From a virus (lineage: Duplodnaviria; Caudoviricetes): a stretch of DNA of 64,000 nucleotides. The position numbers and the translations under genes are program-made. The notes beneath the pieces were generated by a model. That model was given only the letters and a program-made list of their open reading frames with translations, ran no database searches and was not told the DNA's origin. Positions 35,011 through 63,275 of the stretch are shown here, piece by piece; the first letter of the stretch is position 1, and each line of letters starts with the position of its first letter. The DNA lies in the IMG/VR virus record IMGVR_UViG_3300009826_000020, positions 1 through 64,000 of that record, one strand, 5' to 3'.

Positions 35011-35985
35011 ATGACCATGCTCGATACCTATATCCCCTTCGATCAGGGTCCCGGTGCTACGGCGACTGCCCCTCGCTGGCGGCAGATGGCCCGGAACTTC
35101 TGTGGTTCAGGGGTGATCCCCGGCTATCTCAACCAGATGACTCCTACATTGGCCGGTACCAACCTCACCATCGCTTCAGGTGGGGTCATGTGTGATGGGA
35201 TGTACGGGGAAAATGCTGGCCCGAAGACCTTTGCTGTTTCTGCTGCTGGGATTGCTGTTGCACGCATGGATCCCACGGCGAGGTCGATCTCCTTTGCCTG
35301 GCTTGCTAATGCCACCACCTATACGCAGAATCTCACGGGTATCTTCGAGGTCCCTATCGCTATGGTGGTGAACAGCGCCCTGGTCGATTTTCGAGAGTGG
35401 GCAACCGGTGGGGGTGGAGTGGGTGGCAGTCATTCAGAAGGGATGATCGGAGAAATACGGGGGTTCGCTTACTCGACTCCTCTCCCTGGTTGGATCGTCT
35501 CTGATGGGCGTTACCTTGACCGTGCCCAGTACCCGGAACTTTTCGCTAAAATCGGCGTGGTATACGGCTCGACCTCAGCTACTAATTTCCGAATCCCTGA
35601 ACTCACCGCACGGGTTCCCTTTGGTGCGAGCGCCAATTATGCCATGGGGACATGGGGTGGGTCTGCGACCGTAACGCTTACTACGGCTCAGATGCCCACC
35701 CATAACCATGGCAATACCGGTAATATTAGTGCGAACCACGTACACCGGAATACAGTACCGACGAGTGGGACAAACGGGGCGACCATCATCAGTTGGTCTG
35801 CATCCACAATCCATATCGCTTACTCGCCAAGTGGTGAGCCGGTCACGATTGACTCATCAGGAACCCAGACCTCTCAGATAGAGAGTGCCAACCACGTTCA
35901 CGCTACGGCCAATGCCGGAAGCAGTAATTCCCACGAAAACATGCCGCCCTACATGGTCATTACCTGGATGATCAAGGTGCGGTAA
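35011..35985 (+). CDS. tail fibre with tail-collar domain
   Basis: IGEIRGFA..PLPGWIVSDG.YLDRAQYPELFAKIG..YG....FRIPEL..RVP; HENMPPYMVITWMIK. Confidence 0.85.
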   Translation: MTMLDTYIPFDQGPGATATAPRWRQMARNFCGSGVIPGYLNQMTPTLAGTNLTIASGGVMCDGMYGENAGPKTFAVSAAGIAVARMDPTARSISFAWLANATTYTQNLTGIFEVPIAMVVNSALVDFREWATGGGGVGGSHSEGMIGEIRGFAYSTPLPGWIVSDGRYLDRAQYPELFAKIGVVYGSTSATNFRIPELTARVPFGASANYAMGTWGGSATVTLTTAQMPTHNHGNTGNISANHVHRNTVPTSGTNGATIISWSASTIHIAYSPSGEPVTIDSSGTQTSQIESANHVHATANAGSSNSHENMPPYMVITWMIKVR

Positions 35986-36416
35986 TGACCTTCGTCCAGC
36001 CCGCCAATTTTCGCCAGCTACCCCTCCAGCGGGAGATGGGGCAGCCTTTTCACATCGACGCTGCCGGGTCTGTCGCACATGAATTTGATCCGGCCCGGTG
36101 GGCACGTAGTCATATCCTGGCAATCCTGCTGACGAATCCTGGTGAGCGGGTGATGCGGCCCACCTACGGGGCAGGCCTCCAGCGGCAGTTGTTCGAGAAC
36201 GATGACTCGGTCATCGAGACGCAGTTGAACACGGCTATTCGTCAGCAACTGGCCACCTATGAGCCGAACGTCCAGATCAGCGAGTGCAAATTTGTCTTCA
36301 CTGCTGATTACTCTGGAGTCATGGAATTGCAGATCGCCTTCTGGGTGGGGTCGAACCCGTCCCTGCGGACGGTGGCCATCACCATCGATGGCACGGCTAT
36401 TGAGGTCAGGGTATGA
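35985..36416 (+). CDS. baseplate wedge protein (gp25/GPW-like)
   Basis: ILLTNPGERVMRPTYGAGL..LFE...YEPNV. Confidence 0.9.
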   Translation: MTFVQPANFRQLPLQREMGQPFHIDAAGSVAHEFDPARWARSHILAILLTNPGERVMRPTYGAGLQRQLFENDDSVIETQLNTAIRQQLATYEPNVQISECKFVFTADYSGVMELQIAFWVGSNPSLRTVAITIDGTAIEVRV

Positions 36417-38284
36417 GTACCTCGCCAGTTTCCCTCGGGACGGTCTCGGATATTATCCCGTCCTCGATCATCGTCCCCCCTGTCGATTACACCAGCCGTG
36501 ATTATGCCTCGCTGGTGAACGACATGCTCAACCTGATCCCGAGCTATTTGCCGGAGTGGACCGACCGGTCTCCAGGGGATTTTGGCATCGTGATGCTGGA
36601 ATTGTTTGCCTACGTGGGCGACATCCTGAATTTCTACTCAGACCGTATCGCCAATGAGGCGTATATCGGTACAGCCCAGCAGCGGCAGTCGGTGCTGAAT
36701 ATCGCCAACATGCTGGACTACACGCCTCATGGCAATGTGGCGGCGAGCGTTGTGCTCAGTTTCACGATCTCCTCGCCCTCGGGTCCTGTCCTTATTCCAC
36801 AAGGGTCCCAGGTCTCCACCATGCTCACGGGTATCAAGGCCACGATCTTCGAGACGGTGGAAGATCTCTGGGTTTATGGGGACGGTATCTCCACCACAAA
36901 AGTCATTACCAGTAATGGTCTGCCGAATCAGACCATTCTGATGGACGATCCTTCACTGCCTTACCCCTCTTACAATTTTACCGGTGGTTCCGAGCATCAA
37001 TCGGTTTCGGTTGGCGGTGAGAACTGGCCGATCTCGGCTGGTAATGAATTCCATGGGATCGGGACGGACAAGCTCTACACTGTGATCAACGGTAATACAA
37101 TCCAGTTCGGAAATGGGATCAACGCCGCCATCCCCCCTGCTGGTCAGTCGATAATCGTCACCTTTATACCTGCAGTCCCGGGCACCTACGTGGGTCAGGT
37201 CAATGCTCTCCAGGGGGAGAGCCAGATCGGTGAGGGTATCGGGATCTCTGATGGTACGCCCAACCAGCAATATACCCTCTTCAATACCCCGGTGGTAGAC
37301 GGCTCGATCCAGGTCTTTATCAACGAGGGTGCGACTCCCACCGAGTGGATCTATCACCAGCGGATGATCGATGCCTTCTCCTCAGAGGGCGCATATACCT
37401 ATGACGTGGACGCCAACGGTGTCGTCACCATTCGATTCGGGGATGGGATCTCAGGACGCATTCCACCCCAGGGTGTGCTGATTTCTGCCAACTATATGGT
37501 CGGTGGTGGGTCTATTGGCAATGTCGCCGCCCATTCCATCACCCAGATGATGTCCGGCATTACCGGTGTGGTTGCTGTCGACAACCCGGATGCTGCCACA
37601 GGTGGAGCCGACCAGGAGACCATCGACCACATCCGCATCCACGCTCCCCTGTCGATGTCTGCCATCAACAGGGCCGTGACCCTGGACGACTACGCCGCTC
37701 TCACGCTCAACGTCCCGCAGATCGCCAAGGCCGCAGCCATGTCGACTGCCTACAACCAGGTGAACATTTTCATTCATCCAGCGGGTGATTTTCTTGCCAC
37801 TGGCCCTGAGGACACCACTGGAATAGCTACCCTGACGAGGCGTGTCAATGCTCTCCTGCCCTCGCTGACGAATTCCGGCTACACGGGCTACCTTGACGAC
37901 AAGAAAATGGTGAGTACGTCCGTTGTCATTCTGCCTCCGCAGTACGATAATAAAGGCGTGCGCCTGACCGGCTATGTTCCCTGTAATGTCACGGCTACTG
38001 TCCAGGTCTTGCCCCAGTATCATCAGTCGTCTGTCCGGTCACTGGCAGAAGCGGCCCTTCGTAATCTCTTTCTCTTCTCGGTGGTGGATTTTGGATCTCG
38101 AATCACACTATCGAGCGTCTATCATGCCCTCATGAATGTCGAGGGTGTTGACTACGTCAATGTCAACCTCATGGCCCGCAATGAGGCGGATCAGTCAGCG
38201 GCTCCTGCTGACATCGAGTGTGAGGCGTACGAGATCCCCAGGGCCTACCAGATCAACGTCAACGCCAACGGGGGGGTGTTGTAA
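36413..38284 (+). CDS. baseplate J-like wedge protein
   Basis: VDYTSRDY...PEWTDRSPGDFGIVMLELFAY; GGADQET...RAVTLDDY. Confidence 0.9.
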   Translation: MSTSPVSLGTVSDIIPSSIIVPPVDYTSRDYASLVNDMLNLIPSYLPEWTDRSPGDFGIVMLELFAYVGDILNFYSDRIANEAYIGTAQQRQSVLNIANMLDYTPHGNVAASVVLSFTISSPSGPVLIPQGSQVSTMLTGIKATIFETVEDLWVYGDGISTTKVITSNGLPNQTILMDDPSLPYPSYNFTGGSEHQSVSVGGENWPISAGNEFHGIGTDKLYTVINGNTIQFGNGINAAIPPAGQSIIVTFIPAVPGTYVGQVNALQGESQIGEGIGISDGTPNQQYTLFNTPVVDGSIQVFINEGATPTEWIYHQRMIDAFSSEGAYTYDVDANGVVTIRFGDGISGRIPPQGVLISANYMVGGGSIGNVAAHSITQMMSGITGVVAVDNPDAATGGADQETIDHIRIHAPLSMSAINRAVTLDDYAALTLNVPQIAKAAAMSTAYNQVNIFIHPAGDFLATGPEDTTGIATLTRRVNALLPSLTNSGYTGYLDDKKMVSTSVVILPPQYDNKGVRLTGYVPCNVTATVQVLPQYHQSSVRSLAEAALRNLFLFSVVDFGSRITLSSVYHALMNVEGVDYVNVNLMARNEADQSAAPADIECEAYEIPRAYQINVNANGGVL

Positions 38285-39058
38285 ATCCCCGCTTTTCCAT
38301 CCTCGATCAAGGTTTTCCAGACGTTCCAGAATTACACTGATATCATCTGGGCGATCAGTATCAACGAATGTCATGATGAGATCGTCGCCCTTGAGTCAAT
38401 CCTGGGCGTCAATCCTTTCATCGGCACACCCTATACGACCTTCAGTGGTGCCATTCAGGATCTATACGCCAACAAGGCTCCCGCCAACCACACCCACATT
38501 CACTCCAACCTGTTGGACGACAACATAGGGAATGACCATCCTCAGTACATCATGGCGAGCGGGTACCCAGGCTTCAGTGCGCCCGTGGTGGGCGTGGCGG
38601 GTGGTAATGCAGCCAACCTGGTGACCCTGGCCCAGGTGCAGGGCTTCGGCTATGTCAACGAGGCCACGGTGCGCTCCATTGCCACCAGCATGATCAACAG
38701 TGCCGAGGGTGGCCTGATGGTTGGGGCCTGGGGCACTCAGCCCTTGATAGGGGTCGCCCCCAACCCCAGTTGGACGATCCAGGGCGGGGTCTACTCAGCC
38801 TGTACAGACGCCAGTGGCCGGATAACGATCCCCTTCAACCCCCATTATTCGCATTGTGTGCAGTCCGTCTCTGTCACGAAAATGCCTGCAACGCCCCAGG
38901 CAGGTGGCCATTATCCATGCCCACCATATGACTGGATCGAGTCCCAGGTCACCCTTCTTGGCGCATCAGGTACGGGAGCCGTTGTCCAATTCTCCCATGA
39001 CTACAGTTGGCAACCCGGTATGTGGGTGACAATCATGTACATGGCTATGGGGAATTAG
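38285..39058 (+). CDS. minor tail/fibre protein; apparent start codon ATC
   Basis: frame open from 38285 with no ATG/GTG/TTG until 38513; the 76 extra codons align to the N-terminus of paralogue 39059-40336. Confidence 0.7.
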   Translation: MPAFPSSIKVFQTFQNYTDIIWAISINECHDEIVALESILGVNPFIGTPYTTFSGAIQDLYANKAPANHTHIHSNLLDDNIGNDHPQYIMASGYPGFSAPVVGVAGGNAANLVTLAQVQGFGYVNEATVRSIATSMINSAEGGLMVGAWGTQPLIGVAPNPSWTIQGGVYSACTDASGRITIPFNPHYSHCVQSVSVTKMPATPQAGGHYPCPPYDWIESQVTLLGASGTGAVVQFSHDYSWQPGMWVTIMYMAMGN

Positions 39059-40336
39059 ATGTCCGACGTACCGGATATGCCGGTAACTGACCGAGGTGAG
39101 ATCCCACCGGTAGTTGCTAGTCGGCGTTATCCGCAGGCCATACGTAATTTTGTCACCTACCTTGATCAGCCCGGTGGACCGGATCGGTTCCTGGTCACCG
39201 CCAATACCCAAGGCGGCGGGACCACCACCACCGACGTCACCCTTGACGCCGCCGCCGTCACTCGTGATGTGCAGACTGAGATAGTCAGCCTGGAGACGGT
39301 TATCGGTATACGGCCTTGGACTGTGCCCGGGACGGTCGATATCGGTGGTTCAATCAGGTGGCTGTACAACAATAAGGCTGCTGGTCGAGTCGATACTCGG
39401 AACGAAATACCTCCGGCTCCCCCGCCCTCGCACAACCATGTCCACGCCCAGTCGACAGGACTCAATGCCGATGATCACCCGATCTACATGCGGGTCGATG
39501 GCACGAGGCATTTCTCGGCTGCTGTGCTGGGCAAGAACGGCACCGCCGGTAATCATCTGTTGACACTCGGGCAGGTCCAGCCGGGTGGGCCGCTTGCTGG
39601 GCTGACCTCAAGTCAGGTGCAGGCCATCATTCAGGGTCTGATCAATGCCTCCTCGAACAACCCCTGCCGTGGGCCGGATTCCCGCCGATGGAAGATGGCT
39701 GGTGGGGTAGCACAGGGCTATACGGATGCCAACGGTAACCTGGCCTTCAGTATTGCGGCGGCTAAATTCAACGGGATCCTCAGTTTTCTCTTTATGAAGA
39801 TGCCCCATGCGGGTACCACGGCTGTCAACCTGAGCTTCACGCTTTCCGGTGATGTGCTCTTTGCCTTCGACAGTTCGGCCCTCTCGTCCGGTGCTGTGGC
39901 CGAACTGAACAGCATTGCCCTCACGCTGAGGAGTTCGCCCTCTGGGAGTGTGCATGTTGTCGGTCACACCGACTCGATAGGCACGTATGCCTACAACCTC
40001 GGCCTCTCGCAGCGACGGGCTGCCAGTGTGATGTCGTACTTTTCTGCCCATGTTGGCAATTCCCAGCTTCGGTATTCGAGTGAAGGGCGCAGTTATAGCG
40101 ATCCTGTGGCCCCCAACACTCTGCCCAACGGCGCAGATAATCCCGCCGGTCGAGCGCTGAACCGCCGTGTCGAGATCAGCTACGTGCCTGACGTTCGCTA
40201 CGCTTATCAATACATGGAGGATCAGCTTCTGCTCACCTCCCTGACCAATAGCAGTGCAGTCGTCACCTTCATTGAGGATGTCAGGGTGGACAAGCAGGCT
40301 CTGGTCAGCCTCTGTTGGCTGGCACTGGGGATATAG
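39059..40336 (+). CDS. tail fibre paralogue with inserted OmpA-like peptidoglycan-binding domain
   Basis: LSGDVLFAFDS..L...VVGHTDSIG...NLGLSQRRA..V...G.S..DPVAPN...GRALNRRVEI (about 39824-40189). Confidence 0.85.
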   Translation: MSDVPDMPVTDRGEIPPVVASRRYPQAIRNFVTYLDQPGGPDRFLVTANTQGGGTTTTDVTLDAAAVTRDVQTEIVSLETVIGIRPWTVPGTVDIGGSIRWLYNNKAAGRVDTRNEIPPAPPPSHNHVHAQSTGLNADDHPIYMRVDGTRHFSAAVLGKNGTAGNHLLTLGQVQPGGPLAGLTSSQVQAIIQGLINASSNNPCRGPDSRRWKMAGGVAQGYTDANGNLAFSIAAAKFNGILSFLFMKMPHAGTTAVNLSFTLSGDVLFAFDSSALSSGAVAELNSIALTLRSSPSGSVHVVGHTDSIGTYAYNLGLSQRRAASVMSYFSAHVGNSQLRYSSEGRSYSDPVAPNTLPNGADNPAGRALNRRVEISYVPDVRYAYQYMEDQLLLTSLTNSSAVVTFIEDVRVDKQALVSLCWLALGI

Positions 40337-40349
40337 GGAGGAGGACACG

Positions 40350-42478
40350 ATGGGCGTATATGGCCTGGATTTTACGGAGTAGGTCGCTTCGGGCGGGATC
40401 CCGCCCTTGAGCGGCCTGACTTCTCTGTTCAGCCCTTCGCCACCATGCCTCTCAGCTATTCCAGCCTGTACCTGTCCTGGGTGAAGCCCGTATCCCCTGA
40501 CTGCGTGACTCTGCGCCTGGTGCGTACCGGCCTGAACCTCTCCCAGAATCCCGGCGCTGATCCCGGCACTACCACGAATGCCGACGCAGGCTCGGATGGT
40601 TATGTGCTCTTCACCGACACCGTGGATCGGCTACCGAACTTTATTGATGTGGGTCTTGGTGGTGGGTTTTTCTATTACACGATGTGGGGTTGGTCCAACC
40701 AGGACCAGATCTGGATCCGCTGCTCCGATGTGATCGGCCTGGTGCCCCTCAACTGGAACTATGGCTGGCGGCTGTACATGCTCCTCCCCGAGGCCTACCG
40801 GGACCGTGACTGGGTCCTGGTGGATCACTACAACCCTCTGGCCCTGCCCCGGCAGAATGACTTCAGGCCCTACGAGGTGGAGAGTGGTGATTCGTGGCAG
40901 ACACTCGCCTCCCACTACGGCACCACGCCAGAGAGCCTGGCGTACATCAACGGTGAGGTGATCTCGACTCCTCTGACATTGGGTCAATCGATCCTGGTGC
41001 CCTGGCCGAATTCTCCTAACCCGGATCCGCCCCTCAGGCGATTCCTGGGTCTGATCGGATTCCAGTTCGACTTCATCCGCACCGAGCTTGAATCGCTCAT
41101 GAGCGTCAATGACGCCATGCACTGCTCGGGTGCGCTCCTGCCTCTGATGGCTCAGCAGTATGCCCTGGTGCATGAGCCGGAGATCGGGATGCAGCAGGAG
41201 CGCACCTTGGTACAGAACGCCGTGCATCTTTTCAAGCTGAAGGGCACTCCTCGGGGTATTACTGATTGGTGTTCGATCATGACGAGCTACCCCTTCTCCA
41301 GGTTGGTTCACCATGGCTATAACTGTCTGCTATGCCTCGATGATTCGGCCTTTACAGACGGGATAGGTACCTGGCAGTCCTGGCCCCCGAGGGGGGCGAG
41401 CTTCGAGGAGGAAAAGGAGCGCACCTGGTTCGACCCGGACTGGTTCTGTAATCAGACCTTCGGGTATTACTTCGGCTCTGGTGGTGTGAATGTCGAGGTC
41501 ACTGGATTCAAGTTGACCTGGATCCCTGATCTGCCTATGGCTGGGACCTCCAGCCCTCTGGGTGACATGTACCCTGATGGATTCCCTGTGTGGTCACCGG
41601 AATATCTCAATAGCGGTATGAGCCTGTCTGCCGATGGCCCGGGTACGCTGGACACCTGCACTGCAGGCATCCCTATCACCGACTTCGTGTCGGAGACATA
41701 CGGCCCTGGAAATGCCACCTTTCGTGTAGGTGTCTGGTCGCCCACAGCCCGTCAGGTCAACCTCTCAATCTGGGCCGACGAAGGGTCTGACGAGCCGATC
41801 CTCATTGCGGAGCAGAACTTCACCTCGGTGGCCGGTCACTGGTCGCTGTTCACTCTGACCACGCCCATCGATGTATATCCTGACCTGGACGGCCCTGCCC
41901 AGTACTACTGGCTCTATCCCCGTATTCGGATAATAAATGCCGCCGCTCATGAGGTACATTACGTCACGCTGGCTGCCCTCTGGCCCACAACCCCAAACCT
42001 GGTGGGTCTCAACACGCCTGAGTTTGACTATGCCCGTGACCTCAAGGTGAATCTTGAGCCGGTGGCTTCCAATCTTCTCGGTAATACCCTCACGAGTTTC
42101 GACCGTCTTAACCCTGATGATGGCAGGCTACGGATCGGATTCGATGGCCTCTGTGCTGTTGCTGACCCTATTACGAAGGCTGGCCCGCAGACAGGGCAAA
42201 TGGTCTACCGCCGCCAGACTGTCGATGATGCCCCGAGTTCCCTGACCGTCAACGGAAATGCCGCTCTGCAGTTCAACGTGACTGCGCCTGGTGGCACGGT
42301 GTGGTTTGGCAGGATACCCTCCTGGTCGCCCGAACCCCCGACTCCTGATGGATGGTGGGATCCCAAGACCAGTGACTGGTACCCGGGTGCTGGACCTGGA
42401 GCCTCTGCTGCTAGGCCATGGATGAGTGACACACTGGGCTGGTTCGCCATGCCCTTCCCGCCGGGAGTCAGCCTGTGA
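40350..42478 (+). CDS. gpI-like baseplate protein, N-terminal part, with LysM insertion; needs a -1 shift at 40367-40373
   Basis: LPEAY...LRRFL...LLPLMAQQY...LFKLKGT gpI pattern; LysM at 40871-41002; strong SD before ATG 40350, none before ATG 40445. Confidence 0.75.
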
Positions 42479-42729
42479 GCCAAATGGATTCAGAGTCATT
42501 TTTCTGGGTCAGGGGCAAGGTTGAAAAAGGCCCCCGAATGGTGGAGATGGATGGTGGTAGCGAGATGTGTATCGCCGCTACCACCCATGGAAATATACGC
42601 TTCGATTGGCCCAGACTCAGGGATTCAATGCAGGCCCTGATGGAGTCCGGTGCTGACCCTGCCATGGTTGGTGGTGTCGGGTACGCCGACAACGTCTGGC
42701 CATTGCGGCTATGGGGCGAGGACTCCTAG
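42475..42729 (+). CDS. hypothetical protein
   Basis: 84-aa ORF with GGGAG SD; converges on the oxygenase gene. Confidence 0.45.
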   Translation: MSQMDSESFFWVRGKVEKGPRMVEMDGGSEMCIAATTHGNIRFDWPRLRDSMQALMESGADPAMVGGVGYADNVWPLRLWGEDS

Positions 42730-43349
42730 ACGTCGAAGAAGAATAGGTGAACCAGCCGAGGCCCATTCACATAGCTTGTCGCTGAGTGAATGAGGCTGGC
42801 GTCCCAGAGGACGAGCCGGTTATAGATCCCGGCGACCTGGTCGACTAGCTGCCAACTGTCAGGGTGCTCCAGGTTGTACGGGTCATATACTGACGCCTCA
42901 GCGTCCTTGATTGCCTCAGGCCCGTATTTCTCCAGCCGCCTGACCTCATATGGATGTGTGGGCTTACGACGAACGCCGTCAGCAATGTGTTGCCAGAAAC
43001 TCGTCCCATCTTCTGGCCCGCCGTCAGGGTTCAGGTACACCGCCCCGGCATAATCCTGACCATCGTGGTGCCAGACGAGGTTGTCCTCTTGTGAGGTCTG
43101 CTGGAAGACACCGTTCATCCCGTGTTCCAGCCAGGCCGTGATGGGTGTGCCGAGCAGCCGAGAGAATTCCTCACGTTGCCAGGGGAAGAGGAATCGCTCC
43201 TTTGAGCGCAAGCCCTTGAAGTAGTCGAGGTCTGAACCGTACTCCTGGGCGAGGGCGAATTCTCGTATGGCGTCTGGATCCTTGTAGAATTCGTCCACCA
43301 CCAGGAGGCTTGGTGGTTGGGAATTGTGCTGTACCTCTTCTAGATCCAC
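42726..43349 (-). CDS. 2OG-Fe(II) oxygenase (DUF6445-like)
   Basis: VVDEFYKDPDAIREFAL, WHHD..YAGAVYL, GTSFW, YNRLVLW...IHSA, RLVHLFFF. Confidence 0.8.
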   Translation of the reverse strand: MDLEEVQHNSQPPSLLVVDEFYKDPDAIREFALAQEYGSDLDYFKGLRSKERFLFPWQREEFSRLLGTPITAWLEHGMNGVFQQTSQEDNLVWHHDGQDYAGAVYLNPDGGPEDGTSFWQHIADGVRRKPTHPYEVRRLEKYGPEAIKDAEASVYDPYNLEHPDSWQLVDQVAGIYNRLVLWDASLIHSATSYVNGPRLVHLFFFDV

Positions 43350-46174
43350 TTGCTACCGTCCCATACCTTGGCTGGTACCCATCCACCAGCCTGTTCCATG
43401 GTGGCCTCAGAGATGAACCTGAAGTCTCTGATGATGAAATCGACCTCGCCGCCTATCGGGCCGGTCCCCCCTGGTCCTTGCCCGCCCGTCCCTGAGATCC
43501 ACAGGTTCATGTCAACGCTGGGACCGTCATCACCGACATTGGCAATCGCCTGCCCGTCAGGGAATCCGTTCCAGGTGGCCCCAGAATAGCTGCGGGGCAA
43601 CTGCGGGTTTGCCTTCCAGGTGGACGGGCTGCCGGTCGGAGAGGTCCAGGTAACCGAGCGTGGTGGTCCTGAGCGCCAATCGAACCAGTGCTTGGTGGGC
43701 AGTGGCGTGTCGGCCTCGGTGTACCGGAGATCGGCCCCATTGATGCTGGGTCCTGACCAGAAGTAGTCCCGCCACTCTGTATAGGCGGGATCGGGCACGA
43801 TGCTCGGCCAGGAAGACCAGTGGCCGTTGGTGGGCTGTGGGTAGCTCCACCTGGCGAACTCAATGTCGATCTCTCGGTTGCAATAATCCCAGGAGTCACT
43901 GGAGCGAGAATCCCAGGTGAACAGTCCCACCACCACATTGAGGGGCACTGGATCAACCGGCGTGTCCAGTGTCCACTCGTACCTGCCGTAGCCGAAGTTG
44001 TTTTTGCTGATAATCTCGGCGCACTCCCAGCCATTACGGGAGGCGTTGTAGGCGATTTTCAGATGGAGCCGGTCCTGGCCGTCAATAAACACCATGTTGT
44101 TAGACCAGAAGTTGTTGCCGGGTCCGACCCTTTCCCCGCCAGCATTGCGCTTGACGTTCCACTCAATGCCCTTCCACATGAGGTTGGATGACCCACCATT
44201 ACCGAAGAGGGCGTAATTGCGATCTGCTGCTGGTGTGCCATATTCACGTATACCGCTGATGTCTCCACCCCATCGCCGCAGATTTCCTGATGCCCACTTC
44301 GTGCCATCCCACGCCTTGACCGGACCAGGAGGCAAAGCTTCTACGAATGGCCCACCACGGAGGTTGTCCCAGCGTGACGTGTTCTCGGACAGTTCAATGC
44401 CAATAGCACCCGTTGTCCAAGAGGTAGCTGGTGAACCGATATTGGCAGTGCTGATGACCTCCGTCCAATGGCCACCGCTCGGACGACGGCCCACGGCGAG
44501 GACATTGCCCCGCTTGGCAAACCAGAGCGAATCACCGCTAGCAATTCCCGGTGCGATTTCACCGGCCAGGTTGGTTCCCACACCGGCAACCTCACGGCTC
44601 AGATACCATTCTGTCCCATACTGAGCGAGACGGAGGCCGGTCTGTTCCGAACCAGGGTTCTGCAACATTATCCAGAAGGAGAACTGGGCACCGCCAGGAC
44701 TGGTCACGCAGTCGATCAATACATCGCAGTCAGGCCCTTGCAATTCCTTGAAGGTGGGGCGCACGAAGCCCTGGTTCCAACCGCTGGCAGTTTGTCCAAG
44801 CGTGTTGCTGATAACCCGCAGACTGCCGGGATAGCCAGAGTTGATCCAGCCGCTGACCCAAATGGGCGCACCGTCCCCGGCGTCGAGGTTACCGTCAGTC
44901 CGGTTGAAATTATCGATCAGGTCTTCATGATCCGGTTCAGGTCCGGTAATAGCAAGAGGCCCGCCCCGAAGATCGTCCCACCGCTGGGTGGCGTCGGTTA
45001 CCTGAAGACCGAAATACCCGTCAGCCGGGAGGTACAGATTCGATGTGGCGGTGAAGAGTTGTGTCCACTGCCCACTGGCTGGCTTGGCATAAGCAGTGAA
45101 CACGTTCCCACGCTTGGAGAACCACAACTCCTCATTGGCAGTAATGCGGTGTGCGATGCCACCGATATAGGTCCACTGCGTGTAGTCGGTCCCCTCGATG
45201 AGGTACAGGAGGAGTTCGCCTTCATAAATCTGCCAGCCCCAGGTTTTCATGTTGCTGGTTTCGACGTTGTTCGCCAGCATGTACCAGGTGACTACATCGT
45301 CTGCTGCCTGATCCGGCGGTACAACGCATTTGACGATCAGGTCGCAGTTCTCTCCTTGGATTTTCTTCTTGGAAGTTGTGCTCTCCCAGTTCTGGCCGGT
45401 GGGGCTGCCGAGGGTATTGCCAATGACCTGGAAATCAGACGCCCAACTACCCCAAGCACTGTGACCGGTCCAGATGTCCGCTCCTGCACCGTCTTGTACT
45501 GGCCCGTTGGCCCGATTGAAGTCATCGATTAGCTCATCGTATTCCGGTGGGTCTACTGGGGGCGGCTGCTCCTCGGTGATCTCGATGGTGTGCGCCCGAT
45601 AGGGCGAAGAGGAGAATCCGGTCACCGTGTCTGCTGCGGGGTTTGCTGCCAGTCCTGCCCTGGTGTGGACCGCCATGAGTGCCGAGGCCCCAGCAGGCTG
45701 GGCAATGCTGTTCGTCCACCCTGAGGGAGGAGAGCCAGCGGTGTTGGCGTGTGCCGCCCCTCTGGTCACCACCCTGACGCCCATTGATGTCCCACCTGTG
45801 GTGGAGAGAGTCAGCGCTGGATAAATGGTGTTGGTCTGGTTGTTGGCATTTCCGCTTGAGGATCCACCGGTAGGAACAGCTAGGGTTCCGCCGTGACTGG
45901 AGCGCAGGACAAGAACGCAGATGTGGCTGGCGTTTGCTGAGGTGACGGTCCCATGATTCGAGGCCGTCGCTTTTGTCCACGCAGTGACCAAGGCGAGGGT
46001 GTTTGCTGCGCCGGTCTGGAGGCTCGTAAAGGTCAGCCCGGAAATAGTGGGGAGGCTGTTTGCCGTATTGTTCGCCCGCCGAGCCGTGACCAGGATCAGA
46101 TCGCCAGCCTGATGGGCTGGCATAGCGACATTGGTGGCTGCTGCCGAAGCACTACTGGCAATCGTGATGGTCAT
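43340..46174 (-). CDS. receptor-binding protein with GH16 glycoside hydrolase and two tandem lectin-like domains
   Basis: EIDIE catalytic motif at 43859-43873 within FGYGRY...VVGLFTW...REIDIEFARW; repeats ELIDDFNR / DLIDNFNR. Confidence 0.8.
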   Translation of the reverse strand: MTITIASSASAAATNVAMPAHQAGDLILVTARRANNTANSLPTISGLTFTSLQTGAANTLALVTAWTKATASNHGTVTSANASHICVLVLRSSHGGTLAVPTGGSSSGNANNQTNTIYPALTLSTTGGTSMGVRVVTRGAAHANTAGSPPSGWTNSIAQPAGASALMAVHTRAGLAANPAADTVTGFSSSPYRAHTIEITEEQPPPVDPPEYDELIDDFNRANGPVQDGAGADIWTGHSAWGSWASDFQVIGNTLGSPTGQNWESTTSKKKIQGENCDLIVKCVVPPDQAADDVVTWYMLANNVETSNMKTWGWQIYEGELLLYLIEGTDYTQWTYIGGIAHRITANEELWFSKRGNVFTAYAKPASGQWTQLFTATSNLYLPADGYFGLQVTDATQRWDDLRGGPLAITGPEPDHEDLIDNFNRTDGNLDAGDGAPIWVSGWINSGYPGSLRVISNTLGQTASGWNQGFVRPTFKELQGPDCDVLIDCVTSPGGAQFSFWIMLQNPGSEQTGLRLAQYGTEWYLSREVAGVGTNLAGEIAPGIASGDSLWFAKRGNVLAVGRRPSGGHWTEVISTANIGSPATSWTTGAIGIELSENTSRWDNLRGGPFVEALPPGPVKAWDGTKWASGNLRRWGGDISGIREYGTPAADRNYALFGNGGSSNLMWKGIEWNVKRNAGGERVGPGNNFWSNNMVFIDGQDRLHLKIAYNASRNGWECAEIISKNNFGYGRYEWTLDTPVDPVPLNVVVGLFTWDSRSSDSWDYCNREIDIEFARWSYPQPTNGHWSSWPSIVPDPAYTEWRDYFWSGPSINGADLRYTEADTPLPTKHWFDWRSGPPRSVTWTSPTGSPSTWKANPQLPRSYSGATWNGFPDGQAIANVGDDGPSVDMNLWISGTGGQGPGGTGPIGGEVDFIIRDFRFISEATMEQAGGWVPAKVWDGSKWI

Positions 46175-47157
46175 GCTGTTGTCTCAAACCAGAGATCTCC
46201 AATACCTGGATTGTTGGGCTGGGCAGGGCCTACACTCATATTCGCACCGCCCCCTCCACCGGCTATCACCTGCTCCCATGCAGCACCATTCCAGAAGTGG
46301 AAAATCCCCCCCTCAGTCAAAGGAGGTGGTGGAGGTGCTGTCGATGTGGCAATGACCTCGAAGGACAATGCTCGCCAGGCAGAAGAGCCGCTGATGGCCA
46401 CGGTGTCTGCTGTCAGATCAGTGGTCAATCCTGCCCTGTAATGCACTGTCAGCAGAGCACCGGCACCAGCCGGTTGTACTAGGCGATTGTTCCATCCCGG
46501 CGGCGGGTCTGCCATTGCAGTGGCCGCTGTTGTCCTGATGGCTACCCGTACACCCATTGAACTGCCGTCTGTCTTTTGCAGGCTGAGTGCCGGATAGGTG
46601 ACATCGGCAGCATTTCCGTTACCCTGTGAAGTCGCCCCGAGAGCCAAGGTTGCATCTGCTGCTCTGAGCGTGATGGCTGCCGTGTGGTTGGCGTTCGTCC
46701 AGGTTCCCGAGGTGAGATTGGAACCGTTGGCGACGACATGGCCACTCTGGATACTCAGGCTGTCGGCACCTCCGTTGGGTCCCTGCTCCCAGGTGAGGTT
46801 GGGAGAACCGCCCCCAGTTGTATTCGGCTTGGTTGGTGGTGTGTTATTACCTGCTCGACGGGCGACGAGGATCACCAAGTCGCCTGCCTGAGCGGAGGGG
46901 AGCGTTGTCGGAGATAGAGCAGCACCGGCATTGGAAGATGATCCGGCGACGGTGATGGTGGGGATGACTGGCGACGGCGGGGGTGGTGGCTCTAGCCATA
47001 GTAGGAAATTATCACGGGGGTTTGGCGGATTTGTACCAACCCAGATCTGTTCTGCGCTGCCTCCACCTGGAGCGCCCTGAGCACCCTGAGGCCCCTGGTA
47101 AGCGAGATCCCGCCAGCCCGTGGAGGTGCGGATGCGTACCGCTCGTTGGTCACTCAA
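46171..47157 (-). CDS. tail fibre/adaptor protein
   Basis: short GxQ collagen stretch; about 200-aa module shared with the N-terminus of 43340-46174. Confidence 0.7.
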   Translation of the reverse strand: MSDQRAVRIRTSTGWRDLAYQGPQGAQGAPGGGSAEQIWVGTNPPNPRDNFLLWLEPPPPPSPVIPTITVAGSSSNAGAALSPTTLPSAQAGDLVILVARRAGNNTPPTKPNTTGGGSPNLTWEQGPNGGADSLSIQSGHVVANGSNLTSGTWTNANHTAAITLRAADATLALGATSQGNGNAADVTYPALSLQKTDGSSMGVRVAIRTTAATAMADPPPGWNNRLVQPAGAGALLTVHYRAGLTTDLTADTVAISGSSAWRALSFEVIATSTAPPPPPLTEGGIFHFWNGAAWEQVIAGGGGGANMSVGPAQPNNPGIGDLWFETTA

Positions 47158-47311
47158 AGTCTCTCTCCATTTTCCGCAGAATATCCGATTCGTATTGGAG
47201 TCGCTGCAACCGTTTCAACTCTCGGCCTAGGCGTCGGAATGACAACCAGAGATCCACGTTAAGCCCTAGCAGAAATCCGAGCAGGACCAGTAGGACGTGG
47301 ACGGCGGTCAT
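47150..47311 (-). CDS. small membrane protein
   Basis: MTAVHVLLVLLGFLLGLNV TM helix plus charged tail; ATGA overlap. Confidence 0.55.
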   Translation of the reverse strand: MTAVHVLLVLLGFLLGLNVDLWLSFRRLGRELKRLQRLQYESDILRKMERDFE

Positions 47312-49026
47312 GGGACAGTGACCCCAGTGGCAATGGCGATGCGGGGACGGTCGCCCTCCAGCCAGTCCTCTTGGGTTGTAAGCAGGTTGTAGGATGCGCC
47401 CCAGGTGCCGTTGAATTGAATAGCGGGAGTGACCCATCGACCATGATCACGGGTACCATTCGGATTCATACCGAACATGCCGTTCAGCCCGAATAAGAAC
47501 TGACGGGTCGGTACAGCACCGAGTAGGTTGTAGTCCCTGATGCCGTCCCAGTTAAAGTTATCGGCAACGACCCGCATCGTCCCGCCCACCGCTCCGATGA
47601 CGGGGACCAGCACTTCGCCAACCTCGACTGGGCAGTTGATCCCCATCTGGTAAAGACCGGCGGGAGTGCCCGATGGAACGGTGGAAGCGGCGGTCGCCCG
47701 GTGGCTGATGATTCCCGTCTGACGGTCGAGGACGTAGATAGCGAGGTGGCCAGTGACCCCTGAGTCGACCGCCTCCTCCAACCCGATTGTCATACCTGTG
47801 ATCGTGCAGGTTCTACCGGCGGTGAGAAAGGCGAACCGAAACCATCCAGAGGGGAGAGTGACTGCAACGTGAGGACCGGCACCGATGTTCTCAGGGACAT
47901 ACCACCGACCGTCGACCAACGGTGTTGCCCCCGGCAAACCAGCAACGCTAGCGCCACCTGGGCTGGGTTGTAATTGCTCCTCGGTAATCCAGAGGGCACC
48001 GGCATTTTGTGTGTCCGGTTGTTGGGCCTGCTCATGAACTTCGACAAGCCCTGGGGATCCCTGTGGCCCCTGACTCCCTGCGCCTCCTCCAGCGAGATCC
48101 TTCCAGCCCTCTCCGTTCCACATCGATAGGGCGTAGCCGACATCCCCACCACTACTGCTCTGATCGTTGATTGCTTCGTAGTCGCCCAGTATTTCCTGTG
48201 GTGTCAGCGCCCGATTGAATATCGCCACTTCATCCAGAACCCCAGCAAAGGAGGTACCTCCACGCCCCAAGGTGAATTTGGTGGTGAGCGAGGATATTGC
48301 TGTTGCCAATTGTGGTTGAGTGGAGGTGGTGACCGGCGTGGCGGCAACCCCGTCGCAGTAGGCGATTGCTGAAGTGCCATCACAGGTGACGACACCATGA
48401 TGGGTCACGTTGTCTGCAAAGCCGGGTGGACGGGTGCCAGGGGATTGACGGGTTGTGCCGCCGGTTCCAGATGGGCCTGGACGAAATTGCAAGTCGCCGC
48501 TGGTATTGGTTAGGCATTGCCAGGGAAGAGGAACTAGATCTTCAGGGGTACCGAAGCACCACATGATCCTGTTCTCCGTACCCGTGCGGAAGAGTACGCT
48601 CACCGACCACTGATTGCCGAGGCCGGTGATGTCTCCCTCGGCTCTGGAGGTGTTTCCCCAGGCGGCGGCGGTGTCTTCATCCCATGGCAACAATCCGATA
48701 GAGGAGGAGATATTACCGGTACCGAGGAGGGTGGAATTGGCTGGGCTGGAGTCGGTGAAATTCGGTGGATCGTCCATCCGCCAGTAGCGGAATAGTCCAC
48801 TCCTGCTAGCAATGCGAGAGTGGTAGGCAGAGGAGGCTGATCGGCGTGGCTCTACCCATAGCTCTCCGCTGCGTGGGTTTGGTGGTGCTAGCTCAGCGAA
48901 TACTGGCTGTGCTCCTGGTGGGCCTGTCTGTCCACGAATTGTCGCCTGCCATGGCTGGACCGGAGCATCAACACCATCATCACCATCACCGGAAATGGGG
49001 TCGCCGGGATCACCGCTTATGCTCAT
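47308..49026 (-). CDS. tail fibre with LamG/ConA-like domain
   Basis: LFRYWRMDD...HGVVTCDG...YCDG...FAGVLDEVAIFNRALT. Confidence 0.8.
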   Translation of the reverse strand: MSISGDPGDPISGDGDDGVDAPVQPWQATIRGQTGPPGAQPVFAELAPPNPRSGELWVEPRRSASSAYHSRIASRSGLFRYWRMDDPPNFTDSSPANSTLLGTGNISSSIGLLPWDEDTAAAWGNTSRAEGDITGLGNQWSVSVLFRTGTENRIMWCFGTPEDLVPLPWQCLTNTSGDLQFRPGPSGTGGTTRQSPGTRPPGFADNVTHHGVVTCDGTSAIAYCDGVAATPVTTSTQPQLATAISSLTTKFTLGRGGTSFAGVLDEVAIFNRALTPQEILGDYEAINDQSSSGGDVGYALSMWNGEGWKDLAGGGAGSQGPQGSPGLVEVHEQAQQPDTQNAGALWITEEQLQPSPGGASVAGLPGATPLVDGRWYVPENIGAGPHVAVTLPSGWFRFAFLTAGRTCTITGMTIGLEEAVDSGVTGHLAIYVLDRQTGIISHRATAASTVPSGTPAGLYQMGINCPVEVGEVLVPVIGAVGGTMRVVADNFNWDGIRDYNLLGAVPTRQFLFGLNGMFGMNPNGTRDHGRWVTPAIQFNGTWGASYNLLTTQEDWLEGDRPRIAIATGVTVP

Positions 49027-51359
49027 CAGGCACCTCCGAGTGGTGGACGGGCAAGGAGGCGCACGCCCTGGAGATTACGACGACTCATCCCACGATGGAA
49101 GAAAGGTGGCTTCGCCCCAGGGTAGGTTGTCGTCCCTGTTGTCACCTCATAGATGGCAGGCCGACCATAGGATAAGCGGATGCTGGAGAATTCGGACGGC
49201 TCGATGTCGAGGTAGTTCCCGACATCGTCCCGCTTCCCCACCGCACACCGGAAATAAGCAGCACCCCGAGGCACTGGGCACCAGGCTCGCCCCCGCCGAC
49301 CCATGTAGCCGAAGCCCAACCCCTTGGCACCGTTGGAACAGATCCAGGTGTTCACATCGGGCCAAGAGTAGAAGTGCGTGCTGATGAAGCAGTACGGCTC
49401 AGGCAATGCCAAGAGCAGGCCGTCGAAAATGGGGTGAACAGGGAGTGGCAATCCCTGTGTCATACGTGCTCGGTTCGTCACGTTCTGGTGACTTGCCGAG
49501 AGGTTCCGGCCCGTTGAGATCGAGATGCTGCCTGCCTCCCACGGTACTGCTGAGGTGAATTCCAGATCACTGTCGGCAATCTGGACATGGCTGATCCAGC
49601 CGTAGCGTGTGCCCCATGTCCCGTGGGCACTTGCAGCGCCCTGTGCCTGGAAGATGATGTCGCCTCCCCGCACATTCTCCCAGTTCTGACCTGCCTCAAA
49701 ATTCCACCCGTTGGTGACGCACCACCTGGCCTGCTCGGAGGCATTGCGTGGCATGGAGTTCGCCCAGGTGTTCGGGCCGTTGTTGGAGTTGCCCGTACTG
49801 GCATACTTGGAGTTCTCGATGGTGATTCCCCGCATGACCAGGCTCACGAAGGTGGAGCAGTCAATCTGTGACGCTCCTGACCAATCCTCGTTGAGTGCCC
49901 CGTCGTAGCCGTACACGCTGGGTCTGTATGACTGGGTGGTGTTGAACCAGGCATCAGCGAGGGAAATAACCGAACTGATCTGCGATGAGCCATTCTGCGG
50001 GAGCGAGAAATCGCCCGCAAATCGAGGGCCTGATACAACTCCTCTGACTTTCCAGTCACCTGACGAGGTGGCGTTCCGAGGCCGGATGTAGCCGAAGTCG
50101 ATCCGATAGTGGGCCTTGGCCTTGGGTAGGAAAACGCCCTCATCGGTGCAATCCCGTCCCTCAAGCCATAGACCTGGTGCCTGCCAGAACTTGATCCTGT
50201 CGGTGTCAACCTGGGTGCGAAAGGTGAGTGCCGACCTATAGCTGGGGTCGACTGTCGCTGGCATTTGGAATGCCAGTGCCGTCAGGGCCGTCGAGGTGAA
50301 ATCGTGGAATTCTCCAGCCTGGATCGTGGGAGCGGTCGATTCTGTGTAAGAAGCCCCGCTCTGGGTGACCAGGGTCAGTTCTCCAGCGGAGCCTTGGTAC
50401 CCCTGGTGGCCTTGCGCCCCTGGTCCTCCAGCCTCTCCAGTGCCCCCAGGTGACCCCTGGTGGCCCTGTGCGCCCTGCTCTCCGGTAGTCGAGGTACCTG
50501 GTCCCCCCTGGGATCCTGGCCCCCCCTGATGCCCCTGAGCACCCTGGCTCCCCTGTGCTCCACCCTCTCCTGATCCTGCCCCCTCACCGACGAGCAGTCG
50601 GTGAATCCTGACGTTGTCCAGCAGGACTGTTTTGTCGTTTGTCCAGCCATCGAAGAGAACCCGTACGAAAGCAGCATTTTCTGGTGCCCTTGGTTCCCAG
50701 TCATCGAGGTCGTTACTCCATCTGCTGGCGGATCTCAAGGCAACCGAATGCCACCCCGCTCTTTTCCTGAGGAGTGTGAATTTGATGCCTGCGGAGGAGA
50801 AGTGATCCTCATTGGCTGCACTCCATTGCCACTCCACCCGAACACCTGCATCGATTGTCGTCGGTATGGTTGGGATGAAGATATCAGCCAAGAAAACATA
50901 AATTTCCCCAGGCTCTACTGCAATGGGAGATGATGTGTACCCTAGCTCAATTGCGAAGTTATGTACGTCATAGGGTAGGGCGTCTGTTATGGCTAAAGCT
51001 CGGTCACCGACTGTCGCATTACCTGTCACCACTTCAATCGTGGTGTTCGCTGATCCTGTGACGCCCCAAGCTCCTGAAGTGCCGCCTTCAAAAGAAGAAC
51101 TTTCTGCATCCAGCAGGTTTGGGCCGACTATCAGGGCATTCCCTATGTCACCGATTATTCCAGAGGTTCCCTCACCGGAGGCCCCCTGCGCTCCCTGGTG
51201 GCCCTGAGGTCCGGTAGTGCCCTGAGGTATTTGCTCCTCGGTTATCCACAGAGAACCGAGATTCAAGGTATCTGGCTGCTGCGTCCCTTCATAGACCTCT
51301 ACGGCCCCAGAGTCGCCCTGTGGCCCCCGCAGGTTCCCGGCGTTGTTCCAGTTACTCAT
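49026..51359 (-). CDS. tail fibre: collagen repeats, CBM-like domain, interrupted NlpC/P60-like domain
   Basis: NLL..SSFEGG CBM pattern; GxQ repeats; IDCSTFV...GDIIF...SHVQI. Confidence 0.8.
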   Translation of the reverse strand: MSNWNNAGNLRGPQGDSGAVEVYEGTQQPDTLNLGSLWITEEQIPQGTTGPQGHQGAQGASGEGTSGIIGDIGNALIVGPNLLDAESSSFEGGTSGAWGVTGSANTTIEVVTGNATVGDRALAITDALPYDVHNFAIELGYTSSPIAVEPGEIYVFLADIFIPTIPTTIDAGVRVEWQWSAANEDHFSSAGIKFTLLRKRAGWHSVALRSASRWSNDLDDWEPRAPENAAFVRVLFDGWTNDKTVLLDNVRIHRLLVGEGAGSGEGGAQGSQGAQGHQGGPGSQGGPGTSTTGEQGAQGHQGSPGGTGEAGGPGAQGHQGYQGSAGELTLVTQSGASYTESTAPTIQAGEFHDFTSTALTALAFQMPATVDPSYRSALTFRTQVDTDRIKFWQAPGLWLEGRDCTDEGVFLPKAKAHYRIDFGYIRPRNATSSGDWKVRGVVSGPRFAGDFSLPQNGSSQISSVISLADAWFNTTQSYRPSVYGYDGALNEDWSGASQIDCSTFVSLVMRGITIENSKYASTGNSNNGPNTWANSMPRNASEQARWCVTNGWNFEAGQNWENVRGGDIIFQAQGAASAHGTWGTRYGWISHVQIADSDLEFTSAVPWEAGSISISTGRNLSASHQNVTNRARMTQGLPLPVHPIFDGLLLALPEPYCFISTHFYSWPDVNTWICSNGAKGLGFGYMGRRGRAWCPVPRGAAYFRCAVGKRDDVGNYLDIEPSEFSSIRLSYGRPAIYEVTTGTTTYPGAKPPFFHRGMSRRNLQGVRLLARPPLGGA

Positions 51360-51842
51360 TTACGCCCAGACCCACAAATTGCCGTCGATGTCGAGCCACG
51401 CATCTCCTGGTTGCCCGCCTGAAGGCGGCGGTCCCTGGCCCGGGAGAGTGCCGACAATGCGAATACCGGCCCCAGAATCGCCCTGTGCGCCGGGACCACC
51501 CTGGTGCCCTTGGTGTCCTTGCTGACCCAGTTCCCCAGCGTTGCCAGCCCCACCCTGGTTCCCCTGATTTCCCTGATGCCCTTGATTTCCTTGCGCTCCG
51601 GTTCCGCCCGCAGTTCCGGCGGTCCCAGGACCGCCCTGGTTACCCTGTGTTCCGACATTTCCCTGGTGGCCCTGGTGTCCCTGCTGGCCGATGCCTCCAT
51701 CAACCCCAGCGGTTCCTGGCCCGCCCTGATGGCCTTGAGATCCTTGATTCCCTGTGGCCCCATCGGCTCCTGTATTACCGGGATCCCCTTGTAGGCCCTG
51801 AGGCCCTCGGATTACACCGACATTCGACCAATCACCGGACAT
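51360..51842 (-). CDS. collagen-like protein
   Basis: about 37 uninterrupted Gly-X-Y triplets. Confidence 0.85.
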   Translation of the reverse strand: MSGDWSNVGVIRGPQGLQGDPGNTGADGATGNQGSQGHQGGPGTAGVDGGIGQQGHQGHQGNVGTQGNQGGPGTAGTAGGTGAQGNQGHQGNQGNQGGAGNAGELGQQGHQGHQGGPGAQGDSGAGIRIVGTLPGQGPPPSGGQPGDAWLDIDGNLWVWA

Positions 51843-51859
51843 TGCCTGCCCTGCCTTCC

Positions 51860-52414
51860 TTAGCTATAGACCCACAGTTCGCCGGTTTCACCAATAATCC
51901 AGCCATCCCCCGGCTGTGGATCCTCGATGGAGGACAGATCCATCACGAATGGCACGGTGCCCTTGATCGTCGTTCTCGGTCCCGGCTCTCCCTGATATCC
52001 CTGCATACCAAAAGGCCCTTGTGGTCCCTCCGGCCCGGATATCTGTTCAAGCTTTGTCCAGCCGACAGGATCGCCCTTGATCAGTCTTGAGTCATACCAC
52101 CAGACTTCATAGCTGCCGTTGACCGGCCCGACGAGCCAGACCTTGCCCATCTGCGTCACGTCAGGGGTACATGGCAGGAAACGGAGGTCAGGTATTACTG
52201 CCTGGATATTGAATCCACCAGGAGGCCCGGTGTGTCCCTGTAATCCCTGAGGCCCTTGTAGCCCCTGTGGTCCCGGCTGGATGCCCGGTGGGCCTTGAGG
52301 CCCTTGCCGTCCGACCGGCCCAGCTAAGCCAGGTACCAGTATCTCCACGATCTCCGAGGTCGGAGAGACGGTGATGGGAAGCTCGGGATAAAGATCGACG
52401 TCAGTGTTGGACAT
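51860..52414 (-). CDS. collagen-repeat tail protein
   Basis: GPQG repeats; DPQPGDGWIIGETGELWVY. Confidence 0.75.
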   Translation of the reverse strand: MSNTDVDLYPELPITVSPTSEIVEILVPGLAGPVGRQGPQGPPGIQPGPQGLQGPQGLQGHTGPPGGFNIQAVIPDLRFLPCTPDVTQMGKVWLVGPVNGSYEVWWYDSRLIKGDPVGWTKLEQISGPEGPQGPFGMQGYQGEPGPRTTIKGTVPFVMDLSSIEDPQPGDGWIIGETGELWVYS

Positions 52415-63100: not shown

Positions 63101-63275
63101 CCGTAATGGTGCCATGAACGGTGGTGGGAATGTAACCCATCTGAACTTCAAGACCGGTTCGATTACTCTCCAAGTTCCAGCCAACAGTACACAGACACAA
63201 ATGGAAAATATCGCCAAGCAATTTGTGCAGGCAGTGTCCAAGCCTGGTGTCATCGCCGCCGTGAGGAGTAGCTGA
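60114..63275 (+). CDS. tape measure protein with C-terminal lytic transglycosylase
   Basis: 1053 aa after the chaperone; IIQKESGGNP...STGLMQLIPSTF...NIAAGIKYI. Confidence 0.9.
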   Translation: MPDGGGYGLGVLNPSTLKEFATGLGGISSQFTKLVSGVTNFGTAVSKTIQQANTQLDTLDKKFQSLVTRMGQMGAGGPSTGMGGGSGGTGSPSGLGSQWGSALTPAGTSVASGTPSLPKQPTNSIAGTSYPTQAPQAVSTPGVQTTAPNGGGAPLGSAEAAAKAFAPQPSQAAPAAPTQTTAGNGGWGPAPGATPAPTAPSGGNNWPTTPSAPETQTTSPNGGSGSTGGGGSMMQRAATSILPAAAGYAAGAVGEGGGGGAIATSVQGATIGQLLSGQNYTSAAAKQYYVMPKDMMAQSPADYAQGNYYAAQSMGLQPGVGGLTSQNFATVQKGTQQLMTLSPGMSYQSAMAAQNQMNQPQTLNAALRVGINLRPGGKMLTPEQQNEQIFNRMFQGKKPTKDEFDQVMSSGYGQSNLASIGITPGSDEYNQFMNYSRTKIGMQEQGKGMPDVGTKKGAQEAGLNTPYNDQLRVQSKESQLKSQAEPTLAKAADTLNKAANALLGAVQKIGATPGGGGGFFSQIGQHLGLTGGGGGGLLSGFSLHLQGGGEVPDVWQGDLNKTPMGKLPGVSSNFFKNIGRLFGGLNGEADTDKVPTLLSPGERVLSKSEKKSVEKSLAGQSGTSRGYWGPKVAGSQADSSTVAGLLSTKINDLDQTTVAYSLFNKPPDGSLISMMLSQGGQKGGGAQGGKPPDAWVEGQIDASGKTGQTGKASGTRTGQQTGGKTNANQPEESQKKKSGGILGTIGDVLGGVVKGVGGVVGSLLGGGAGLGGAGGGAGGLGGGPGGGLLGTGFAGAPAPSVGTLPWNYKMLTSTPVDMSSLFDKQSASSDDSSSDDSSSSVVGSAPSGNLKGWISQAMKITNVSGDAWTNGLNLIIQKESGGNPGVTNNWDSNAAAGHASTGLMQLIPSTFKANAVPGYDKNINDPVSNIAAGIKYIESRYHDISNVPGVKAVAAGGAYVGYARGTQRIAETQLALLHRGESVVPAADNYGTAPYNRNGAMNGGGNVTHLNFKTGSITLQVPANSTQTQMENIAKQFVQAVSKPGVIAAVRSS

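Follow-up and report, generated by a model that had tools for sequence, protein, structure and literature searches.

Receptor-binding proteins of phages that infect Gram-positive bacteria recruit carbohydrate-binding modules, and we know of no fibre module described as directly recognising the stem peptide of peptidoglycan. The OmpA_C domains (PF00691), a family that includes those of OmpA, OprF, Pal, YiaD, MotB and PA0833, the A. baumannii OmpA-PD and the extension of PsaB (7f4v), usually form the terminal part of proteins of the cell envelope. In A. baumannii OmpA the pair of residues that binds diaminopimelate (DAP) is D271 and R286 (PMC5974059). Phage baseplates offer a second line of comparison: siphophages that infect Gram-positive bacteria have “evolved Dits” and BppA-type decorations, which carry binding modules in a loop of a lectin-like domain, where the inserts add adhesion to the host wall beside the main receptor-binding protein (PMC7291167). 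For some Listeria phages, peptidoglycan itself is given as the documented receptor, as reference 63 is cited in PMC9863714.

Here we analyse a 64-kb window, the first part of an 83,018-bp IMG/VR virus record, whose DNA is contained in termite-gut metagenomes, with no RNA run among the sequencing runs listed for it, and whose source is an uncultured contractile-tailed phage of the termite gut. One of its baseplate-module genes, B, encodes a fibre-like protein into which a complete OmpA_C domain has been inserted, and the alignments indicate that the putative DAP-binding pair of this domain has been kept.

A conserved baseplate block with two fibre-like paralogues

The phage encodes proteins of replication and recombination (DnaB, an SNF2 helicase, PolA and RecA) along with a terminase, portal, capsid and contractile-tail sheath. 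Its baseplate block lies on the plus strand and begins with a fibre-like gene with a tail-collar domain (35011-35985), followed by a gp25/W-like baseplate wedge gene (35985-36416; PF04965, E 1.1e-12) and a baseplate J-like gene (36413-38284; PF04865, E 5e-11) that also matches the baseplate wedge families phrog_219 and phrog_6. Downstream of J lie the two fibre-like genes, A (38285-39058) and B (39059-40336), and a P2-I-like baseplate gene (40445-42478; PF09684). The order (collar)-W-J-A-B-I is common to four related contigs, in which A has 250-256 aa and B, at the same position in the baseplate module, has 278-294 aa and no OmpA domain.

As originally predicted, A and B are colinear paralogues. 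A, of about 257 aa and without an insert, is an open frame that follows immediately, and in frame, on the TAA of J; B runs from ATG to TAG and encodes 425 aa. BLASTP aligns the two proteins in two segments, A 27-201 with B 69-249 (E 8e-17) and A 215-256 with B 383-424 (E 2e-4), which leave 13 residues of A and 133 of B unaligned between them, and every motif that the prediction had quoted from the pair is found in the sequences. At its N-terminus A shares homology, over 41 residues, with gp99 of Streptomyces phage LuckySocke (E 6e-10), which is likewise encoded after baseplate J; this similarity suggests a conserved docking module. The start of A is unusual in that no ATG, GTG or TTG precedes 38513, yet the first 76 codons are conserved (window 38270-38515). 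In two related contigs (L005 and L006) the orthologues of A (250-256 aa) begin with a TAATG that overlaps J. At this place the window has TAAATC, preceded by seven consecutive G; an ATC start, readthrough of the TAA from J, which is in the same frame, or a sequence error are each possible.

The P2-I-like protein carries a LysM domain (PF01476; about 40871-41002), which alignment with the L005 and L006 orthologues shows to be inserted and which is found in 4 of 49 homologues, the two closest included. In both of these closest LysM-bearing contigs B is without OmpA, so that, judged by these gene contents, the OmpA graft is a later, lineage-specific step compared with the gain of LysM. LysM folds in contractile baseplates can be purely structural, and the LysM insert is therefore no independent proof of wall binding. 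The P2-I-like protein is also shortened at its C-terminus, having 677 aa versus 817-1127 aa in most homologues, some of which carry a CBM_4_9 domain near that end. Beyond the end of the gene (42300-42478), the window continues into a minus-strand operon of large fibre-like genes (42726-52414).

At its other end, the P2-I-like gene is apparently frameshifted at codon 8 (window 40337-40448). An ATG at 40350, behind GGAGGAGG, reads MGVYGLDFTE-stop, and one extra T in GATTTTAC would give MGVYGLDFYGVGRFG..., which matches the N-termini of orthologues (L005; P0033 from residue 272 onward). The Logan contigs of the source runs carry the identical sequence at this point, and either a homopolymer error or a programmed shift would account for it. 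P0033 itself, a candidate fusion of B with I, was judged to be a sequencing or gene-calling artefact in which a B gene runs out of frame into I.

Further along the plus strand, a large tail protein and probable tape measure (60114-63275) contains an SLT transglycosylase domain (PF01464, E 2.3e-14), and the tail gene that follows it (63275-64000, running past the end of the window) has an NlpC/P60 endopeptidase domain. From these domain matches the virion seems to carry two wall hydrolases. In the second of these genes, the NlpC/P60 domain is fused to a region with a weak CIS_tube match (L094 275-1723), and its product may be a tube-initiator-type protein that carries a wall hydrolase. Two other genes of the record deserve mention, namely a 229-aa ORF of the ADP-ribosyltransferase exoenzyme family (L094 18419-19108, genome 81419-82108; PF03496, E 5e-9) and one for a 1147-aa protein with four stretches of collagen triple-helix repeats (L094 3184-6627, genome 66184-69627; PF01391, E 9e-35).

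An OmpA_C domain nested in a fibre-like scaffold

The Pfam OmpA model PF00691 matches B at residues 267-359 (E 7.5e-14; 52.3 bits against a cut-off of 27.2), and it scores 55.7 bits in a six-frame search. Alignment with about 35 orthologues sets the extent of the insert at residues ~252-380 (nt ~39812-40198), close to the stretch from about 39824 to 40189 that had been proposed from the sequence. At this position A and the orthologues have a loop of 8-10 residues: the orthologues run from ‘KMPFPGGSMLGW’ directly to ‘YAYQYMEDQL’, and B has the insert in between. Scaffold and insert were folded separately. Folded alone (AF2, 40 close homologues), the insert reaches a pLDDT of 94.6 and a pTM of 0.87 and shows the beta-alpha-beta-alpha-beta-beta order of strands and helices expected of OmpA_C. 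A Foldseek search with this model returns solved OmpA_C domains with E values down to 2e-12 and TM scores of 0.7-0.8, among them the A. baumannii OmpA domain with a DAP-containing peptide (3td5). Compared with solved structures, residues 225-375 of B match the OmpA-like C-terminal extension of PsaB (7f4v; 1.6e-19) and, further, PA0833, OprF, OmpA, YiaD, Pal, TssL, YfiB and MotB-type domains. The Pfam match, the gap in the orthologues and the complete isolated fold together bear out the predicted graft of a domain into a loop.

The insert retains all 20 of the columns that are invariant in a 41-row alignment with 40 close OmpA domains, and D305, R320 and the NRRV motif are invariant across all 41. 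D305 closes the GHTD motif (residues 302-305; 39962-39973) and corresponds to D271 of A. baumannii OmpA. The original prediction had assigned DAP binding to this aspartate and to an arginine of NRRV (NRRVEI, residues 368-373; 40160-40177). The aspartate stands, but the arginine has to be reassigned: R320, in LSQRRA (residues 316-321; 40004-40021), lies at +15 from D305, the spacing of D271 and R286 in A. baumannii, and R320 is on this ground the residue that would pair with D305. The NRRV arginines are conserved too, but they are not the residue cited for DAP. No direct repeats were found flanking the insert. A motif of the scaffold, GYTDANG (39716-39736), is nearly invariant in the family and superficially like the GHTDSIG of OmpA; we judge the likeness coincidental, and it led a joint MAFFT alignment to place OmpA proteins on the scaffold.

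The scaffold is covered by no Pfam or PHROG family. Its HxHxH motif (H125, H127 and H129; 39431-39445), invariant in 36 family members, and its DDHPxY motif, invariant or nearly so, form a unit that repeats 9-12 times in two long metagenomic proteins (P0044 and P0096). The HxHxH of B recalls the metal-binding HxH motifs of trimeric fibres. An AF2 model of full-length B, built with 36 family members, has an overall pLDDT of 58 and does not place the insert confidently; it is confident, with values of 84-96, at residues ~205-250 and ~385-425. In the model these two segments form one six-stranded beta-sandwich interrupted by the insert. The first half of this head (residues ~207-251, three strands; 39677-39811) has a pLDDT of 84-95 over blocks 211-250, and the second (residues 381-425 and the stop codon; 40199-40336), which BLASTP aligns with the C-terminus of A, has 76-96 over blocks 391-425. 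By the modelled topology, OmpA_C in B takes the place of the short loop that joins strands three and four of the head.

In an exhaustive structural comparison, seven of the nine best matches to the head are distal domains of phage fibres, tailspikes and R-pyocin fibres, with Z scores of 7.7-6.2 that, being below 8, may reflect a common arrangement only. They comprise gp53 of AP22 (Z 7.7), the R1 and R2 pyocin fibres (Z 7.5 and 6.5), and the phi297, LKA1 and AP22 tailspikes together with the Pam1 receptor-binding domain (Z 7.3-6.2); the H-type lectins discoidin I, HPA and SLL-2 also appear among the matches. A BFVD structural search gave no match with E below 0.05. Because of these Z scores and the BFVD result, we hold it as likely, and not more, that the modelled head is a fibre tip. 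The name “tail fibre” that B had been given is plausible on indirect grounds, favoured by the position between baseplate J and the P2-I-like gene, by HxHxH and by the sandwich, and limited by Z scores of at most 7.7 and by the lack of a family model.

The first 255 residues of B, used as query in a word-indexed search, retrieved 24 other proteins of 274-314 aa with 39-55% identity, none of them annotated as OmpA. Among 1.84 billion cluster representatives, searched exhaustively with HMMER, no other protein combines scaffold and OmpA, and the scaffold orthologues without the insert number about 35. Among phages, the OmpA-like matches in 16 INPHARED records and the tblastn matches in “Pseudomonas phage” records were traced to bacterial or prophage-flank DNA that is unannotated or mislabelled (pal, yiaD, ompA); neither set contained a tail gene. 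Five IMG/VR loci with related OmpA domains, sought with a 7-row alignment, encode small stand-alone proteins of about 180-210 aa. Literature searches turned up no relevant account of an OmpA-like domain in a phage fibre or virion. In the sequence databases that we searched, B alone has an OmpA_C domain inside a fibre-type head, and the literature that we searched does not describe this combination. The original claim that such an architecture has no described precedent needs qualification: it holds for OmpA_C in a fibre, but the principle of setting modules into loops of baseplate proteins is known from the evolved Dits.

Host, proposed role and rival explanations

The best cultured-phage matches of J (34%, to a baseplate J protein) and PolA (33%) are to the same Streptomyces myophages, with identities ranging from 33 to 35%. 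Among named OmpA domains, the closest are those of Acidimicrobiales (55%) and Solirubrobacterales (51-52%); in a tree of OmpA domains the row nearest to the insert is a metagenomic protein (61%), followed by Acidimicrobiia, and no supported clade forms around the insert. A prophage search that took the A family as query and covered 401 Actinomycetota genomes, plus the three with the closest OmpA domains, gave no match, a result that says nothing either way. The phage matches of J and PolA, the closest named OmpA domains and the two wall hydrolases lead us to favour an actinobacterial monoderm: faint as these similarities are, the host probably belongs to the Actinomycetota and has a DAP-type wall, and the OmpA_C domain of B was probably taken from an actinobacterial wall-associated protein.

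We suggest, with a probability of roughly 0.55, that B is a peptidoglycan-binding adsorption module on a baseplate fibre, a reading in which we infer the virion location, the trimeric state, the ligand and the host. B would be a small baseplate-attached fibre or receptor-binding protein. Its N-terminal module of ~45 residues, common to A and to the post-J gene of Streptomyces myophages, would probably dock it to the wedge, and this would be followed by an HxHxH/DDHPxY shaft and then by the lectin-like beta-sandwich head. Because the Asp/Arg pair is kept in its OmpA_C domain, we propose that this pair would grip the diaminopimelate of the peptidoglycan stem peptide, so that the fibre tip attaches non-covalently to DAP-type peptidoglycan where a monoderm host exposes it. 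Several copies of B per baseplate, together with the LysM of the wedge protein, would provide avidity and hold the baseplate on the wall; the SLT and NlpC/P60 hydrolases could then open the wall once the baseplate is fixed, and the sheath would contract. A more far-reaching version, that peptidoglycan is the receptor of the phage and is read by a host-derived OmpA_C on every fibre tip of the baseplate together with LysM in the adjacent wedge protein, we put forward only tentatively and regard as somewhat doubtful. Were it true, B would be the first case in which an OmpA_C domain serves a phage for receptor binding, and the phage could perhaps adsorb to any DAP-type wall, whatever its surface glycans. 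The adsorption reading needs a host with exposed peptidoglycan.

The record is a metagenome assembly and B is the only member of its 90% cluster, as a chimera of a phage contig with a bacterial OmpA gene would have it. An assembly artefact is nevertheless unlikely, since the insert continues an intact frame with scaffold sequence on either side, its GC (0.60) and GC3 (0.66) match those of the scaffold (0.58 and 0.65), and the two probable source runs, in their separate Logan assembly, give a contig of 22.7 kb that is identical across 38200-40600. A 741-nt contig from another termite-gut sample (39333-40073) moreover spans the 5' junction with 0 differences; the contigs of that second sample (X3 and X4) leave 40073-40281 uncovered, so that only the 5' junction is bridged there. 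With the composition, frame and contigs in agreement, we assign next to no probability to a chimera. Hardly more persuasive is the idea that B acts outside the virion, for instance as an assembly factor or as a protein of the cell interior or the periplasm, where it would anchor something to the wall of the producer cell. The fact that no family model names the scaffold would allow for this, but B is embedded in the conserved W-J-A-B-I block, its N-terminus shows no signal peptide-like features in translation, its head resembles fibre tips and its HxHxH is invariant, and we take such a role to be very improbable.

A rival that concerns the insert itself holds that the OmpA_C domain is a passenger or has been repurposed, either with another ligand, such as a wall polymer of another kind or a partner from the phage, or as a recent, near-neutral insertion that the loop tolerates and that has no part in adsorption. 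Being a singleton among about 35 orthologues, joined by linkers that are both short, the insert could be such a passenger, and the three PHROG families that contain an OmpA domain are all of unknown function. We nevertheless think this reading unlikely: the insert has kept every invariant column of its close homologues, the DAP pair included, it is confidently predicted to fold on its own, its composition is already phage-like, more than one termite-gut sample contains the identical sequence, and the adjacent gene has gained a second wall-binding module. Less likely still, in our estimate, is a diderm host, in which OmpA_C would bind peptidoglycan only after the outer membrane has been breached, or in membrane-damaged cells, and would clamp the contracted baseplate to the sacculus instead of serving first adsorption. 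OmpA_C domains are best known from diderm periplasms, diderms are abundant in termite guts, and about half of the 80 closest genomic OmpA matches belong to Pseudomonadota, Acidobacteriota and similar phyla. Against this, the insert belongs to a peripheral fibre-like protein rather than to the hub or tube initiator, Streptomyces is the host of the nearest phage relatives, and the closest named OmpA domains are actinobacterial.

If the OmpA_C domain of B does bind a DAP-type wall, as the adsorption reading proposes, then B would be a natural example of a host wall anchor converted into a viral adhesin by insertion of a domain into a loop, one for which the pre-insertion state of the scaffold survives in dozens of relatives. 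Such a domain would also be a portable and compact head with which uncultured hosts could be labelled or captured by their walls, the host of this phage in the termite gut among them, and the graft would mark a loop of the fibre head that tolerates large inserts.

Comparison with known systems

The insert of B is alike to known OmpA_C domains in sequence, in fold (TM about 0.8) and in its GHTD, LSxRRA and NRRV motifs. In contrast to their usual place, it is nested within a phage baseplate-module protein, between linkers of ~5 residues. The head of B aligns over about 80 residues with AP22 gp53 (4mtm), the R1 and R2 pyocin fibres (6cxb, 6cl6), HPA (2ccv) and discoidin I (2w94), with Z scores of 7.7-5.8, and like the distal domains of fibres it is C-terminal in a short protein of a baseplate module. 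It differs from these fibre tips and H-type lectins in sharing only 6-16% identity with them at Z below 8, values that do not establish homology, and no matched solved domain is described with a domain nested in it. LuckySocke gp99, annotated as a hypothetical protein, and its relatives occupy the position of A after J and share its N-terminal module; beyond this they are unrelated, without the HxHxH shaft, a match to the lectin-like head or an OmpA domain.

The closest parallel in principle is the evolved Dit, a baseplate protein in which a binding module likewise sits in a loop of the lectin-like domain. The two differ in their components: a Dit galectin scaffold with carbohydrate-binding inserts in a siphophage on one side, and an unnamed fibre-like scaffold with an OmpA_C insert in a myophage with sheath and wedge genes on the other. 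Pfam and PHROG searches of B found no Dit, galectin or CBM family. By analogy, B would work in a similar way to an evolved Dit without being a member of that group. The parts and the principle are known, and what is new, as far as the databases and literature that we searched go, is the combination of an OmpA_C domain with a fibre-type head.
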